Origin: Chiloscyllium plagiosum | Taxonomy: Eukaryota | DNA: 64,000 nucleotides | Assembly (NCBI RefSeq): GCF_004010195.1 | Contig: NC_057740.1 | Coordinates: 33,850,793 to 33,914,792 of the forward strand | Direction of reading: 5' to 3' | Shown: piece by piece, positions 1-61,440 of the stretch | Numbering within the stretch: position 1 is the stretch's first letter | Layout: every line of letters starts with the position of its first letter | Translations under genes and position numbers: made by a program | Notes under the pieces: generated by a model | Databases searched by the model: none | What the model was told of the DNA's origin: nothing | The model's input: the letters and a program-made list of their open reading frames with translations, nothing else

Positions 1-180
1 GTCCCTCCTCCCTATCTTTTATCTTCTCCTGCTGAACACTTTCTGCTCATTCCTGAAGAAGGGCATGTGCCCGAAACGTCGAATCTTCTGTTCCCTAGAT
101 GCTGCCTGACCTGCTGTGCTGTTCCAGCAATAAAGTTTCAGCTTTGATCTCCAGCGTCTGCAGACCTCACTTTCTCCTCC
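1..180 (+). mobile_element. Penelope-like element terminal (pLTR) repeat, family A, with hammerhead motif
   Basis: CTGAAGAAGGGC..GCCCGAAACGTCG followed by GATGCTGCCTGACCTGCTGTGC..CCAGC..CTCACTTTCTCCT; the same module recurs at 17.1, 18.8, 23.6, 24.1, 31.6, 59.3 and 60.9 kb. Confidence 0.8.
49..84 (+). ncRNA. Minimal type-I hammerhead ribozyme motif (structurally intact)
   Basis: Stem I ATTC(49-52)/GAAT(81-84); core CTGAAGA(53-59)+extra A; stem II GGGC-ATGT-GCCC(61-72); GAAA(73-76); palindromic ACGT mini stem III; predicted cut after GTC (80). Confidence 0.8.
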
Positions 181-1650
181 TGAAATAAACTGCCTTACTC
201 ACTTAGAGGAGTCTTGCGTTTGGCATTGGCATTCCTGATGCTGTTTTAGCCTCCCCACAAGGTCCAAAAAGATTAGATGTAACCTGGTATGGAGTCTTCT
301 CCTGATTGGCAACTCTGCTGGAGCTGTCCCAATGGTTACATCACAGGTGATCCTATAATCGAATAGGAACCAGGACATTTTGGTATTGAGTGAAGCTGTA
401 GGCTGTTTCCGTAAGCCTGCATTCAAAGTTTGGACTGCTCTTTCTGCCAAACCATTGGACGATAGATGGTACGGAGCTGTCCTTACAGGCCGAATGTCAC
501 TCAACTTTAGAAAATACTCAAACTCCCTGCTGGCAAATGATGGCCTGTTGTCTGTGACCAACACCTCTGTGTATGCAAAAGATACCGGCAACTTTTCTAT
601 CATGATCCCTCTGTTTTTCGAATGAACTCTACACATGTCCAACCACACTGAATGTGTAATCGAGTCCAGGGTTACCTGGCCATTGCCATGAATATGAGCA
701 TCCATTTCCTGGCAACCAGACATAACTTCTCACCAACATCTTCACTTCAGAAAAGCTTGGATGACCCTGGTGGAGTTCAGCCTGTATCTGGCCAGAAGAT
801 CATCTGAATATTTAATTAGGATTTCAGTCAGACAGCCATTTTGTAATTGAAAAATGTTGAGCCAATCAAGTTGAATCTTTCTCAACAATTTCTCCCATCA
901 TACTTGGGCCTGAGTCTTTTACTACAATCAGCTGCTTCTGATAAGAGACCGGAAGCAGAGTTGTACCATTAATCTGTAAAGGTTGTCCGGCATAGGTTCT
1001 CAGCCTGGCCAAGGTCTGACACAAACTTAAGGTTTGGAGTCTCGAGTGAATTTTGGTCAAGACTGGTTCTGCAATCACTAATACAGCTGTGCCAGTACTG
1101 ACCTCCATTAGAACTAGGTCACCATTTAATCAGACCTTTATTTTGATTGGTTCTGATTTGGATGTTGCTAAGCAATATAACTTCTTCCACACCAACTGTA
1201 GGTGGACTTTCCAGGGTGTGCGCTCTCCTGGAATCTGACCTATAAGTTCTATTACTTAATTCAGGCCTAGTGGGACATTTCTGTCGTCTTGAGTTTGCTC
1301 ACCAGCAGCAACTAAAATAGCCTGCTGGCCCGGATCCTTGAGAAAACTTTAACTGTTTGGCTGAGGCTTGGCTTTGTTTTGAGGTTTTGCTCTGGACTGA
1401 CCTAGAGTTCTTCTGTTCAGGATATGTCCTGAGTGAGGCAATGCAATTTCCTTCACTCAAGTGGTGTTCCCCAAGCTCAGTTGGCCTGGCAAAGGTGTCC
1501 AGTACCGTTAGAATGCCTTATAACTCATAAGTACCAATTGCAGCATTTTCTAATGGCAAAATCAGTTGTAGCGCCTGTTGATGTCTAGTTGGGCTTCAAC
1601 GAGTAGGTGCTTTTGAATGGTCGCATTATTAATTCCACTCTCGTCCCCAC
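181..1650 (-). mobile_element. Internally deleted Ty3/Gypsy element body (gag fragment, protease, integrase; no RT/RNase H)
   Basis: Integrase core 'VTDN..FASREF...RTAPYH.SSNGLAERAVQTL' (199-723); integrase zinc-binding region 'ELHQGHPSFSEVKMLVRSYVWLPG' (~705-780); protease-like 'MEVSTGTAV..LRTYAGQPL' (866-1108); gag-like 'GINNATIQKHLLVEAQL' (~1585-1636); PBS-like GTGGGGACGAG next to LTR. Confidence 0.85.
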
Positions 1651-8859: not shown

Positions 8860-9560
8860 AGGGAGCAACTGGTTTGGTCAGAAACTTTGAAGAATGCAGA
8901 GAAGTGTAAAGTGATACATTCTGGAAGAAAGTCCAAGGAAAGGCAACATAAAAGAAATGTTCAATTTTTGAAAGGGGATTCAGGAACACAGAAACTTCAG
9001 GTATAAGTGCATATGTTTGTAGCCTAAACCTAATTCCAATGTTTGCCCATGGTATTGAAATTGGCCGGACAGTTTATGAGAGAGTTTCTGATAGCATTCT
9101 CTGGACTTTATATATAGAGGCACAGAGAAAGTTTATAAAACACTGGTTTGGCCTCAACTGGACTATTGTGTCCAATTAACAAAGACATAAATTGCTGATG
9201 AAACTCTGAAGAAGGGTCATTAGATTTGAAATGTTAGCTCTGCTTTGTCTCCACAGATGCTGGCAGACCTATTGAGTTTCTCTAGCAGTTTCAGATTTCC
9301 ACCATTACAGATCTTTGTTTTATTTTCCTTTTTTGTGGCAACAAGTTAGAATCTGGAATGTACTGCCTGAAAGCATTGATAGGGCAAATTATATCTTTAT
9401 TCTTGAAAGAGAATTGGATAAGAACCATCAACAAATAAAAACCCAGGGTCACAAGAACGGTGGTGGAGTAGGAGTAACTGTATTTTTTCTTGTATGGAAC
9501 CTATACAGGTGATCTGGGCTGAATGTCCTTGTTCTTTGATGTGTGATCATTCTGTGGTAT
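8860..9560 (+). mobile_element. Old CR1 LINE 3' fragment interrupted by a Penelope-like piece (9185-9325)
   Basis: 'NAEKCKVIHSG', TATAAAACACTGGTTTGGCCTCAACTGGACTATTGTGT (YK.LVRP.LEYC), 'VRIWNVLPE'; insert has CTGAAGAAGGGTC-ATTA-GATTTGAAATG. Confidence 0.7.
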
Positions 9561-18160: not shown

Positions 18161-18816
18161 TGCTTCCAACTTGGACAGAGAGAGCAGCATGAATCAATGC
18201 TACGTCCGCCATCAAAAGGGAAGGCCAGTAGTGCCTCGGATAAGTCAATGGCCTATTGTGCTCCACAAGGCCACCATCTTCTCCCTGCTACCTCAGACTC
18301 AAAAGGCCATTCACTCATGCTAACTTTGTCATTGCACAAAACATCTCATCACGGGTAATAGCATCACCCATCACATGCAAAATGGCCCCTAAAGGGCTCA
18401 CACCTTTACAACAACTAACTTCCTTCCGCTGTTCCTGTTCACTCACTGGGGACACCTCACCACCTCTTGGGTTTATATATGTTCACTAACTGTAATCTAC
18501 TCAATTCTTCTCGTTCTCTCATTGCAGGAAGAAAATGGTCCACAACCAGACTGAGAGGTCCAAGACTGGAGGGGAGGCGGCAGCCTTCAGGTTCCTTCCT
18601 CCCAATGAGGATAAGATGATTGTGTTGGTTGGGAGATCAAAACTGCTCATGTGTTAAAGGGCAGACACCAATGGGCAACTAACCCAGTCAGCTCCTTTGT
18701 GTTGTGCTCCTTTCTGATTACCAGCGATGCTAACTCACTCTTCTGCATAAGCTTTTATCCATTTTCTCCAAATAACTTCCTTTCCTGTTTTAAGCAGGCA
18801 CTTGTGACATCTGGAG

Positions 18817-19003
18817 CTGAAAAATGTGTTGCTGGAAAAGCGCAGCCGGTCAGGCAGCATCCAAGGAGCAGGAATCTGAAGAAGGGCTAATGCCTGAAAC
18901 GTCGATTCTACTGCTCCTTGGGTACTGCCTGACCTGCTGCGCTTTTCCAGCAACACATTTTTCAGCTCTGATCTCCAGCATCTGCAGTCCTCACTTTCTC
19001 CTT
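18817..19003 (+). mobile_element. Fold-back Penelope-like insertion with hammerhead core in the loop
   Basis: ~60-bp inverted arms around CTGAAGA-A-GGGC-TAAT-GCCT-GAAA-CGTC (18876-18903); TSD CTTG(T/C)GACATCT(G/A)GAG at 18801-18816 and 19004-19019. Confidence 0.85.
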
Positions 19004-20341
19004 CTTGCGACATCTAGAGATTCTCCACTGGGAAGAGGCTACAGTCTGAACCCCTCAGTGACAGCTTAACCTCTCAGACAGAAGCTTGTCAACCATCAAT
19101 CAGCTCAGAGACTTGAGTGGGTCCTTTATCTAGATTAGACTTGGGACAAAATCTGATGAACACATACTTCTCTGCAGTGAGTGTAGGAAGAAACACCCGA
19201 GGTCTTTGACACTTAGCTCCATGCAGAAGACCTGTCCCTGTTCTAAGTCATAAGTGATGTGCTTTACTTGCAGCAATAGGCACAGGAACATCAGGCTGGT
19301 GTGCCATATGTATTTGGTAAGCCGGATGATTGATAGAGGAGTCCTTCAAAGGTCTCACTATGATGGTCGTTCTGGCATACAAACGCTTAGCTGCCTCTAT
19401 GGACAGGGACTTTTAAAAATTCATTAATGGGATTAGGGTGTCGCTGGTTCAACAAGCATTTATTGCCCATCCCTAATTGCACATTGCTATGGGTCTGGAG
19501 TTACATGTATGCCAAACCAATTAAGGAAGGCAGTTTCCTTTCCTAAGGACATTCGTGAACCAGACGAGTTTTTCCCGGCAATCACCAATCGATATGTGGT
19601 CATCATTAGACTCTTATTTCCATACTTTAAAATTGAATTCAAATATCGCATCCACCATGGAGGGGATTGAACCTGGGTCTCTGGATTAACAATCCAGTCA
19701 TATTACCACTAGGTTGTTGTCTCACTGGCAGTTGCCTTGGAGGCTCAGGGCTTTTGACAGGCTCAGTGGCTGCTATACCCACTCCATCACCTTAGCCATG
19801 GGTCCTAGCATTGCCATCAAGGTGAGGATGCAAGGGATCTTGATCTCACTTTGGGTGACCTTTCCTCTCAAGAAGACAGGGCATTGCCAGTGTGCTCGCC
19901 CAGAAGGATGAGTAACACAGAAATACCCCAGCAATAGTTTCTCAGGAAACTTCAGAAGTGCTTTGCCACCCCGTATGCCCCTCAACCGCTCCCTTCCCTC
20001 TGATCCCAAAGCCAACAAGTGTTTAAGCTGAGGAGGGTGAGACTGCCTCTAGACAGCAGGCAACGAATGTACTTGTGCCCTCTAGTTCAAAAGGCACGAG
20101 GAAAACACTGCCTAGGACTTCCAAATCAACTACCAAGCAAGCTCCCTACATTTGTAGATGTTAAACCTGCATGAAGAACAGTGAGAGTCAGAAGAAGAAG
20201 AAAACATACTGACGGCATTAGGGGCATGGGTACTACATTATTGTGCACAAGCCATCAGTTTTGTCAATACATTTCCACTTACTTTGTTACAATGTCTGTT
20301 GTAGGACCTGGTTAGGTCAGATTCATGTAAGAGATGAAATT

Positions 20342-22531: not shown

Positions 22532-23560
22532 GTTGGCATGTCCATTCTATGAGCTACAATGGACATTGATGGAGGGGTCAGCCTTGTTCTTGCTTTGTTT
22601 AACTGGTTATGTTTCTCAATTGTGAAAGATTGGAACTGCAATTTTCAATCTGACGAGATCAATGAGATGCAAATATGGAAAGAAGGCGAGATTATGAACA
22701 GGCCATCTAAGGTATGAGGACTGAATCAAGAAAGTACTTTTTCAGAGTGAGAGTCTGATATTTAGATAATTTCTCACATGATTAAGCTCTATCACTCACC
22801 ATCATTCTCGGCGCGTCAGAGGAGAAAATTCTATCCTGAGTTTGGATTGTCCAAATGTCTGGCACATTTTTTATACTGGCAGCCTGGGAAGACTCTGGGG
22901 TAAATTTTCTGTTGGTTTTAATGGAATTTTCAATTTGCACTAGATGGATGTGAGAGTTCTTTATGCCACAAGATATAAACTTTACCCCTGAATTCCATTC
23001 TTTGGGATGAATTTTAACTTAAATTCAAAGGGGAAAATACCAGGTTTCCCTGAGTTGCTTATTCTGTCTATCTGTTCTTGTTTCCATTTTTTTCCAAATA
23101 TTACAGTAGTTTGCCATTGCTTTCTGCAGAATGGCTGACCAGGAAACTTCCCCATTCTTACCACCTGCTATCAAGTGTACTGTATTGAAAGGATACATAG
23201 GCTAAGAATCCACTTGTTTGGCCATCTTACAAATACACATTCCATAATCAATAAGTTCTGCTGTGGGATTCAAAGCCTGTAGCTTCTGACCCAGAGGAAT
23301 AAAACATCATCACTGTGTAAAAAAGCTTTCCTGAATTGCTAATTACATACACCTTTTTCCAAATCATAGTTCTGCAAGCAGTGCTGTAAGAAATGGAATA
23401 ATTCATAGAACATCTTGAGTGTCTTGTAAATCCTGTAATGGAGGATACCACACATTTTAGTGTCAGCAAGAACCCTTTTTGGAGTCACTTTGATTAGACA
23501 CGGGAAATGCCAATAAAATATTGAAATAAGCAAGAGATGATAGGGTGATGTTTTATATAG

Positions 23561-23773
23561 GCGAAAGTGAGGACTGTAGATGCTGGAGATCAGAATCAAG
23601 ATTAGTGTGGTGCTGGAAAAGCATAACAGGTCAGGCAGCATCAGAGGAGCAGGAAAATCGATGTTTCGGACAGGAGCCCTGATGAAGGGCTTTTGCCTGA
23701 AATGTCGATTTTACTGCTCCTTGGATGCTGCCTGACCTGCTGTGCTTTTCCAGCACCACTCTAATCTTGGTTC
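23561..23773. mobile_element. Fold-back Penelope-like insertion with hammerhead core
   Basis: ~85-bp inverted arms; CTGATGA-A-GGGC-TTTT-GCCT-GAAA-TGTC at 23679-23706; TSD TGATGTTTTA(T/C)AT(A/G)G at 23546-23560 and 23774-23788. Confidence 0.85.
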
Positions 23774-24065: not shown

Positions 24066-24246
24066 GAGAGTGTAGTGCTAGAAAAGCACAGCAGGTCAGG
24101 CAGCATCCGAAGAACAGGAGAATCAATGTTTCAGGCATATGAAACGTCGATTCTCCTGCCCCTCGGATGCTGCCTGACCTGCTGAGCTTTTCCAGCACCA
24201 CACTATTGACTCTGATCTCCAGCATCTGCAGTCCTCACTTTCTCCT
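24066..24246. mobile_element. Fold-back Penelope-like insertion (hammerhead core truncated at apex)
   Basis: Inverted arms meeting at TTTCAGGCATATGAAACG; TSD AGCTCAT(T)CCAGTTTC at 24051-24065 and 24247-24262. Confidence 0.85.
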
Positions 24247-35417: not shown

Positions 35418-36457
35418 TTCCCAAGATGGTGATGGAATAGGATGCTTCAGCTGGAGCTGGACCACTCTGCTCATTCTTCTTGTTTTTCTTCTCTTTTACT
35501 CACTTCTTTGTTTTGTTTTATTCTTCTCTCCTGGCCTCCGGTCAGCTCCTGGCCTCAAGTGTGACTCCAGGACTCCGGTTCAAGTCTTGACCTCCAGTTT
35601 GACTCCAGGCCCTCCCAGCCTGGTATAGTGGCCTCCTAGCCTGGTATAGTGGTCTCCCAGCCTGGTATAGCGGTCTCCCAGCCTGGTATAGCGGCCTCCT
35701 AGCCTGGTATAGTGGCCTCCTAGCCTGGTATAGCGGCCTCCTAGCCTGGTATAGCGGCCTCCTAGCCTGGTATAGCGGCCTCCCAGCCTGGTATAGCGGC
35801 CTCCTAGCCTGGTATAGCGGCCTCCTAGCCTGGTATAGTGGCCTCCTAGCCTGGTATAGCGGTCTCCCAGCCTGGTATAGTGGTCTCCCAGCCTGGTATA
35901 GTGGTCTCCCAGCCTGGTATAGTGTTCTCCCAGCCTGGTATAGCGGTCTCCCAGCCTGGTATAGCGGTCTCCCAGCCTGGTATAGCGGTCTCCTAGCCTG
36001 GTATAGCGGTCTCCCAGCCTGGTATAGTGGTCTCCCAGCCTGGTATAGCAGCCTCCTAGCCTGGTATAGCGGTCTCCCAGCCTGGTATAGTGGTCTCCCA
36101 GCCTGGTTTAGTGGTCTCCCAGCCTGGTATAGCGGTCTCCCAGCCTGGTATAGCGGTCTCCCAGCCTGATATAGCGGCCTTCCAGCCTGGTATAGCAGCC
36201 TCCTAGCCTGGTATAGCGGCCTCCTAGCCTGGTATAGCAGCCTCCCAGCCTGGTATAGTGGCTTCCCAGCCTGGAAGACCACTCTTCTGAACATTTTATT
36301 TCTCTATTTTCAGAGATCTTGTAACTGAAGAAGATGTACCTGGGTACCTTTGTATCTAAGATGTGCTGTAAGTAGCAATGTATAAACTTTTTACTGTACT
36401 CATTTGAGTACATATGACAATAAAGTTATTCAATTCAGTTCAAATCAATTCAATTCA
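35418..36457 (+). mobile_element. Non-autonomous retroposon enclosing the minisatellite
   Basis: 5' CCCAAGATGG start; 3' TACTGTACTCATTTGAGTACATATGACAATAAA+(TTCAA)n tail resembles the Rex1-type tail at 28975-29030. Confidence 0.5.
35619..36269. repeat. 21-bp minisatellite, 31 units, consensus CCTGGTATAGYGGYCTCCYAG
   Basis: Units in exact 21-nt phase from 35619 to 36249 with no net indel; produces the (RPLYQAG/R)n ORF. Confidence 0.95.
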
Positions 36458-53114: not shown

Positions 53115-53285
53115 TTCAGAAATTGGTGGAAAAGTTCAGCAGGTGTGGCAGCATCCATGGAGGAAAGCAGAGTTAATGTTTCAGGTCCAGTGACCCTTCT
53201 TCAGAACCAAAAACTCTGCTGGGTTTTTCCAGCAATTTCTGATTTTGTGTCTGGTTTCCAATATTTGCAATCTTTGTTTTTTTTA
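53115..53285 (-). mobile_element. Penelope-like terminal repeat, family B, with hammerhead core
   Basis: Minus strand GTT-CTGAAGA-A-GGGTC-ACTG-GACCT-GAAA-CATT-AAC (53172-53207). Confidence 0.75.
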
Positions 53286-60761: not shown

Positions 60762-61440
60762 TCCTTGCAGGTTATAAATTGGGCTGTTCACTGACTACAA
60801 CTCCATTTACAGTTCTTAAGAAACAGTCCATGCTCCTGTGCAGCAGTCCTGGACAACATCTAGGAGAAAGTGAGGACTGCAGATGCTGGAGATCAGAATA
60901 GAGAGTATGGTGCTGGAAAAGCACAGCAGGTCAGGCAGCCTCCGAGGAACAAGAGAATCAACATTTTGGCCATAAGCCTTTTCCTGTTTCATTCCTGATG
61001 AAGGGCCTATGCTTGAAACATTGATTCTCCTCCTCCTTGGATGCTGCCCAACTTGCTGTGCTTTTCCAGCACCATGCTCTCAACTCTGGACAACATCTAG
61101 GCTTAGAATGAAAAACAATATGTGCTATCCATGCTAGGCAAGTGTCAGGCAATGGCCAACTCTGAAAAGAGAACATAACTACCTTCATTTGACATTCAAA
61201 TGCCATTATCGTCATGGTGTCCCACATTATCATAATCCTAGAAGTTGCTATTGACCAGAAACTGACTAGAACCAACCAGATAAACATAATGCTTGATGAG
61301 GCTTGATTTTTTACAGCAACTGGCTAACTGGACTCTCATAGCTTCTACATCTCTCAAAGACACGTTAGTGTGATTGCATTGTCTCCGTTTACCTGGATGT
61401 CTGCAGTTCCAACATGAAGAGAGCTCAGTACTCTCCAGAT
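60762..61440 (+). mobile_element. Old CR1-group LINE RT fragment (inverted partner at 60210-60450)
   Basis: CTGGACAACATCTAGGCTT..CAAGTGTCAGGCAATG (KCQAM)..ATTGACCAGAAACTG (IDQKL). Confidence 0.65.
60865..61085. mobile_element. Fold-back Penelope-like insertion with hammerhead core
   Basis: ATTC-CTGATGA-A-GGGC-CTAT-GCTT-GAAA-CATT (60991-61022); ~75-bp inverted arms; perfect 16-bp TSD CTGGACAACATCTAGG at 60849-64 and 61086-101. Confidence 0.9.

Follow-up and report, generated by a model that had tools for sequence, protein, structure and literature searches.

The question raised by this locus is whether the hammerhead-like sequence near the start of the shark DNA analysed here encodes a live self-cleaving RNA, or serves the element that carries it in some other way. 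The first-pass annotation of the window (the whole stretch of 64,000 nucleotides) had described an apparently intact minimal type-I hammerhead in a Penelope-like repeat at positions 49-84, and had singled out that copy as a notable candidate for self-cleavage. The reading that we favour, at a probability of roughly 0.7, is that the hammerhead stands at the extreme 5' end of the element's RNA and that this RNA is reverse-transcribed uncut.

The motif itself is real and complete. Read directly on the forward strand, it consists, in order, of ATTC, CTGAAGA, A, GGGC, ATGT, GCCC, GAA, ACGT, C and GAAT (Table 1); G61-C72 is the G10.1-C11.1 pair, and CpGs occur at 72-73, 77-78 and 80-81. A purpose-built descriptor of the minimal hammerhead gave 21 hits in 386,729 unbiased bases, compared with none or one in each of 20 shuffles, and the extra base between 9 and 10.1 was found in all 21. 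With the palindrome and a stem I of at least 4 bp, there were no descriptor hits in 200 dinucleotide shuffles of the window. Within the 64 kb there are seven descriptor hits and 13 hits to the family, and only 49-84 keeps the palindrome, stem II and a 4-bp stem I together. The earlier description of a complete motif therefore holds against shuffled controls, as does its status as the sole fully intact descriptor hit in the window, although its CpGs number three and not two. A scan with hammerhead models had been proposed; the Rfam models gave no match in the window, either at the gathering threshold or at E<=10, and a search of positions 1-300 returned only four weak unrelated hits. Rfam is blind to this motif because its hammerhead models require helix III.

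Table 1. Features of the hammerhead-bearing pseudo-LTR, in window coordinates. pLTR = pseudo-LTR, ORF = open reading frame, TSD = target-site duplication.
Feature	Position	Strand	Basis or remark
3' UTR part of the 3' pLTR, upstream of the hammerhead	1..48	+	Identity of 95-100% in young copies; runs on from the GIY-YIG frame in L043 and L091
Initiator-like TCATTCC, putative +1 at A49; hotspot of insertion 5' ends	47..53	+	55/100 young copies start at 46-55
Stem I, 5' strand (ATTC)	49..52	+	Sequence; pairs covary between families
Catalytic core C3-A9 (CTGAAGA)	53..59	+	Sequence
Extra A between 9 and 10.1	60	+	A in 118/118 family A hits; agrees with PMC4209133
Stem II GGGC/GCCC (61-64/69-72), loop ATGT	61..72	+	Pair probability 0.92-1.0 in all folds
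G12 A13 A14	73..75	+	Sequence
Palindrome ACGT, A15.1-U16.1; stem III in dimer only	76..79	+	Sequence; AGCT in family C
C17; predicted cut after 80	80	+	Sequence
Stem I, 3' strand (GAAT)	81..84	+	Sequence; older subfamilies have GATT, a U.U mismatch
AATAAA, possible poly(A) signal	129..134	+	Young subfamily only; older copies are without it
Two 3' end sites (~140-143 and ~177-181) bounding the PLE tail; putative RT start sites	140..181	+	Bimodal ends; PMC11167929
Right TSD copy CTCCTGAAATAAACTG; ends overlap element ends	177..192	+	Identical 16-letter sequence bounds the insertion on the left (L031)

At least four families share the core and differ in their stems, with 118, 8, 28 and 2 hits for families A, B, C and D, respectively. 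In the same order, the pair 2.1-1.1 is C-G, T-A, C-G and A-T, and the pair 2.2-1.2 is T-A, T-A, A-T and C-G; the palindrome is ACGT in A, B and D and AGCT in C. Read with the proviso that stem II was preset in the family search patterns, as was the 3' side in those for B and C, and that D comprises two hits, these differences indicate that the hammerhead structure is under selection between lineages. Markers matched 722 times genome-wide for family B and 11,057 times for family C. A sense EN-like hit lies upstream of one of 30 family B copies (E=5e-15), and a weak one upstream of one of 30 family C copies. Decayed copies of family B, which has a 5-bp stem II and a UU cleavage site, occur in the window at 53169-53210 (-) and 9200-9241 (+). 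Family C, with its AGCT palindrome and UA site, occurs at L086:326-366 (-) and L226:9072-9112 (+), and a fourth family, with a 7-bp stem II, at L218:9723-9768 (-).

Judged from related copies, the carrier of the motif is the 3' pLTR of a young Neptune-type Penelope-like retrotransposon (PLE). The RT and GIY-YIG domains were read in sibling copies, the body of the window's own copy being N. The RT-EN frame of these siblings ends about 150 nt before stem I and includes RVT_1 (PF00078, E=1e-7) with a DKG motif, a C-X4-C-X2-C linker (CNRRRCNTC / CARRRCNTC) and GIY-YIG (PF01541, E=3.5e-5). One copy (L139) holds a single open frame of 588 codons from the RT through the C-terminal GIY-YIG, and in two others (L123 and L081) the exact 36-mer lies behind ORF pieces. 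The siblings thus bear out the earlier call of a Penelope-like repeat, and the closest proteins its shark origin: they come from Chiloscyllium punctatum (83%), Rhincodon (74%), Stegostoma (73%) and Mobula (72%), followed at about 50% by unnamed and marine-invertebrate proteins. An RT, a CX2-5CxxC linker and, at the C-terminus, GIY-YIG are traits of the Neptune clade (PMC8557442), the linker fitting Neptune or Nematis, and among the PLE groups in 35 genomes the vertebrate ones are Neptune and Poseidon (bioRxiv 10.64898/2026.07.22.740005). The placement in Neptune is a probable one, made from the linker and the vertebrate distribution. In a sister subfamily the arrangement is pLTR-ORF-pLTR, with two direct pLTRs 3,425 bp apart, one hammerhead in each (L409), and a likely start ATG about 36 nt behind the tail.

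The insertion at the window start opens on the left with a 16-bp TSD, followed by an inverted short pLTR with an identical hammerhead and by a piece of the ORF in forward orientation that matches L141 at 100% over 175 bp. Next come about 2.3 kb of N, the pLTR of the window with its tail, and the second TSD. Stem I lies about 2.49 kb from the ORF piece, against about 2.46 kb in a sibling, which leaves little room for a second direct pLTR, though the N run hides the middle. One sense and one antisense hammerhead are seen, with no same-strand partner for a cis-dimer outside the N-filled middle, and the window copy is 5'-truncated. Several repeats and relics were also noted. A tandem repeat with a period of roughly 21/42 bp has been captured between the pLTR copies of young insertions (L034:8985-9514, L032:6462-6973 and L108), and a 213-bp N-terminal piece of the ORF is tandemly repeated at least 13 times in L172-L184 (C1, ~136.15 Mb). 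Internal deletions that bring ORF pieces up against the 3' end abound in the family (L076-L165); the 17 junctions mapped are scattered and suggest frequent template switching. In the window, a minus-strand relic resembling LTR-retrotransposon pol, judged by eye, adjoins the insertion at ~400-1900, and a 21-bp tandem repeat of 31.6 copies (93% matches) lies at 35611-36274.

The exact 36-mer occurs 1,354 times in the genome (661 + 693; control 0), and there are 90,002 intact cores of the family in 3.556 Gb. One intact copy in the window is unremarkable because this density predicts about 1.6 per 64 kb; the copy at 49-84 is not special, and an identical inverted motif lies just upstream of the window. 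A 30-mer diagnostic of the young subfamily was counted 22,164 times, and the whole motif with a 4-bp stem I was present in 30 of the first 100 copies with this marker. In the unbiased stretches the variable sites are N7, loop 2 (the part that varies between subfamilies), position 1.3 and the three CpGs; G12 has become A in 7/59 copies and the palindrome G has become A in 15/60. Older copies decay at all three CpGs, including G12, so that intactness at 49-84 probably marks youth, and individual hammerhead copies would decay after insertion. The commonest subfamilies are mismatched in stem I, with T.T at 2.3-1.3 in 44 of the 118 family A hits. As to the loop itself, in the ATGT subfamily its ATG opens a 14-codon frame (window 65-109), which in the sister subfamily is the frame of the main ORF; in copies with a TTAT loop the ATG stands in another frame, a possible upstream ORF control.

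Insertion ends were mapped against a natural copy in the first 100 of the 22,164 young copies, all on one contig (C1) and picked by the 3' marker 111-140. Fifty-four were paired, 13 had an inverted piece upstream and 33 were solo; one had a same-strand neighbour within 3.5 kb. Besides the 55 5' ends at the hotspot (46-55), 15 lay farther upstream and 30 at 57-110, so that 55 of the 89 copies ending within 1-110 end there (p about 1e-34 against a uniform distribution). None of the 100 started at the cut site, position 81, and three started within 79-83; there were minor clusters at 62, 71 and 77. The same peak was seen in the solo copies, where 18 of the 29 ending within 1-110 fell at 46-55 (p=2e-12 under a uniform expectation), and a TSD of at least 7 bp adjoined the junction in 13 of these 18. 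Families B and C gave comparable boundaries by hand count, 19/30 copies stopping 0-7 nt and 15/30 stopping 0-12 nt upstream of C3, respectively, although these families are older, the counts rougher, and upstream divergence can mimic a 5' end. The Initiator consensus is YYANWYY, and the family B boundary, TCAGTT, is also Initiator-like. A49 is our putative transcription start. A G preceded the junction in 1/6 solo and 4/9 total copies starting at 49, which is no clear sign of a cap-derived G. Two further ideas were dropped. Splicing to an acceptor in stem I, on the D. virilis pattern, lacks an AG before 49, and TSDs abut the junction; the spacing of a possible DPE was not constant across families.

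The 3' ends of the 100 young copies were bimodal, 50 at 140-153 and 50 at 174-186, and all 27 inverted pairs combined one short with one tailed end. This arrangement matches the two RT start sites and two-strand priming observed in vitro with the Anolis element (PMC11167929). Many inverted junctions use TTC/GAA microhomology. In a search for template jumps at 49 into ORF pieces, 1/17 junctions lay at 44-56 and one at 77-85, to which a further copy (L407) adds one; it begins at position 50 and runs through the pLTR and tail into the ORF start. At L407:4552 a 3' pLTR piece begins at 49 and is fused directly to a point midway in the EN domain, the product expected of a jump after run-off. The window also holds four head-to-head fold-back pairs of older pLTR copies (18815-19005, 23559-23755, 24073-24246 and 60862-61071), with junctions in or near the hammerhead.

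Insertions that cross the cut site and run off at a 5' end argue that most templates were uncut. The replication cycle would then proceed as follows. The pLTR-ORF-pLTR element, whose units in the sister subfamily measure about 3.4 kb and have one hammerhead in each pLTR, would be transcribed from an internal promoter starting at about A49; in the D. virilis Penelope, an internal promoter without a TATA box lies in the pLTR (PMC2377424). The RT-EN protein would nick both target strands and prime at about 143 and 180 of the pLTR RNA, as the lizard in vitro work and the bimodal ends suggest. Most cDNAs would cross 80/81 and end at 46-55, giving the observed solo or fold-back copies of 90-135 bp with TSDs. 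Cleavage would need pairing through ACGU with a second hammerhead, and probably also the protein of the element, and would be a conditional, minor event. The genomic copy at 49-84 would be a 5'-truncated passenger, with no same-strand partner seen, and would decay like the older copies. The 15/100 copies that extend upstream of 46 would need tandem read-through, a template or strand jump, or a circle. In Anolis, unprocessed RNA is the dominant insertion substrate and no RNA-seq ends fall at the cut site (PMC11167929).

In RNA run X18, whose organism may be a related species, 686 reads fell on window 1-400 and 1,634 on another copy (L072); run X19 gave none. The X18 reads came from both strands, their depth tracked genomic copy structure, and starts and ends did not pile up, in a library that cannot map 5'-OH ends; we regard the signal as passive read-through, uninformative on cleavage. 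Sixty RNA reads had an A-rich loose end at 140 with an agreement of 0.57, weak support for a poly(A) site. From a start at 49 and with the AATAAA, a solo copy could give a polyadenylated RNA of about 100 nt.

The alternative that survives best, although we consider it unlikely, is that the two hammerheads of one transcript, 5' and 3', pair via ACGU and cleave after C80, whereupon ligation closes the unit into a circle, as proposed in PMC4209133. Only the circle would let the RT copy the ORF, because the RT starts about 95-130 nt from the RNA 5' end, and the short copies would be abortive products of linear RNA. Direct pLTR pairs such as those of L409 exist, tailed ORF-bearing insertions, including the window's, need a priming site downstream of the ORF, and selection on the fold in active lineages follows from the covariation. 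A template that was cut and then religated or bridged would likewise be copied across 80/81. A circle, however, gives no reason for L407, with its 5' pLTR and ORF start, to stop at 50. Indel scars at 80/81 are absent from the young copies, and one possible ATGT/CTGT subfamily chimera across 80/81 in 195 young copies leaves a cut-and-ligate exchange unsupported. Catalytic mutants had no effect on insertion in vitro (PMC11167929), and the same products would come from tandem read-through or from a strand jump across the pLTR repeat. A combined version, in which the hammerhead is both the first 36 nt of the transcript and the internal promoter region, is doubtful. In that version, linear RNA would give mostly abortive hammerhead-headed mini-copies because the RT primes only ~95-130 nt downstream, and protein-gated dimer cleavage with a circle would license the rare ORF-length copy. 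If such a switch is true, tens of thousands of insertion junctions are a readable record of the PLE replication cycle.

The boundary at 46-55 might instead be a stall or fold-back point of the RT at the end of the stem II/stem I region, set by microhomology and not by transcription. The TTC/GAA junctions, the small clusters at 62, 71 and 77 and the unclear cap-G excess fit this idea. We judge it improbable, since the same peak occurs in solo copies with TSDs directly at 49-53 and the boundary recurs in families with different stems. RT usually stalls 3' of a hairpin, and here the stop lies behind it. Still less probable is that the motif persists as a promoter or as a binding element for protein, or travels as a parasitic passenger, with catalysis irrelevant. 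It does lie at the putative +1 to +36, where internal promoters lie (PMC2377424), Naiad PLEs thrive without canonical hammerheads (PMC8557442), and the T.T mismatch is carried by the commonest subfamilies. Against this, compensatory changes in stem I, stem II and palindrome around a fixed catalytic core point to RNA catalysis, and the lizard motif does cleave with protein, a C3G/G8C rescue being reported (PMC11167929).

Folding of 49-84 was unremarkable (z = -0.80) and gave no support beyond stem II. Helix III, part of the canonical type-I hammerhead of the Rfam kind, was absent from every fold, and the loop 1-loop 2 contact has no counterpart in the minimal motif. The pairing probability of stem I was 0.00 with bases 1-48 included and 0.06-0.5 without them, and the stem is predicted not to form in its sequence context. 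By nearest-neighbour energies, which carry little weight as evidence for hammerheads, the swapped dimer as modelled (-14.5 kcal/mol) offers no gain over two monomers (-15.6) and lies far above an inactive duplex (-26.4). At an alternative cut, C48/A49 (CUC), neither stem pairs on checking by hand. That the copy yields an efficiently self-cleaving RNA alone or as a simple dimer, as the first-pass annotation had it, is very improbable despite its intact core bases and 4-bp stem I and the presence of the family in RNA reads: stem III is absent, neither stem I nor the dimer is favoured by the models, the only partner seen is antisense, the copy is one of 1,354 identical ones whose intactness reflects youth, no young insertion among 100 begins at 81, monomers were uncut and dimers weakly cut in PMC4209133, and the lizard hammerhead cuts only with protein and can be lost, by mutation of the catalytic core, with in vitro insertion unaffected (PMC11167929).

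The function of PLE hammerheads is still called unclear (PMC8557442). The 22,164 near-identical young insertions record in vivo where reverse transcription starts and stops, and their end pattern gives an exact prediction of the transcription start. Neither hammerheads of shark PLEs nor 5' ends at stem I came up in the literature searched, where the supplements of the 2014 and 2024 papers and the bioRxiv tables could hold either.

Compared with known systems, the shark element shares with metazoan non-LTR retrozymes a type-I hammerhead, a high copy number and a derivation from or link to PLE pLTRs; retrozymes reach up to 120,000 copies in axolotl and are reported in one chondrichthyan (PMC7229834; bioRxiv 10.64898/2026.07.22.740005). 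The shark copies, in contrast, are dispersed singles or head-to-head pairs of a minimal motif and not tandem arrays, and there is no short head-to-tail hammerhead array at 49-84. With the Neptune EN+ PLEs (Craig et al. 2021, PMC8557442) it has in common the RT, the CX2-5CxxC linker, the C-terminal GIY-YIG and the DKG motif, as well as partial tandems, inverted 5'-truncated copies and a tail; the single RT and GIY-YIG ORF (in sibling copies), the tandem or inverted pLTRs and the 30-40 bp tail are all features of EN+ PLEs.

By its sequence features the motif belongs to the kind of minimal hammerhead described in metazoan PLEs in 2014 (Cervera and de la Pena, PMC4209133), and its cleavage is predicted. 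At 49-84 are found the core CUGANGA...GAAA...UH, the closed stem II, the palindrome, the extra base and the pLTR location. Both groups share the type-I fold without helix III, the palindromic 15.1-16.1, the extra base at 9/10.1, G10.1-C11.1 and a short stem I, and occur mostly as single truncated copies, with inverted pairs and several families per genome. The dimer action and the tolerated extra base, on which the first-pass annotation had relied, are both stated in that paper. No shark is named in the available text of that paper or in its supplement file 2. The 90,002 intact cores here compare with ~4,000 in coelacanth and ~9,000 in Xenopus, counted there with different descriptors, and stem II is 4 bp compared to 7-8 in Schistosoma.

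The nearest experimental system is the Poseidon element PAc of Anolis carolinensis (Frangieh et al. 2024, PMC11167929). It differs in having no Zn-finger-like linker, which the shark element has, and in a start codon within stem II, the shark's likely lying about 36 nt behind the tail; clustering of 5' ends at stem I is unreported for PAc in the available text of that paper. The two have in common a hammerhead in the pLTR, two RT start sites bounding a tail of 30-40 bp with both strands primed, and unprocessed RNA as the probable main template. The shark pattern, with two start sites and a stop at stem I and not at the cut site, thus supports, with genomic evidence from a different clade, what the lizard element showed in vitro.
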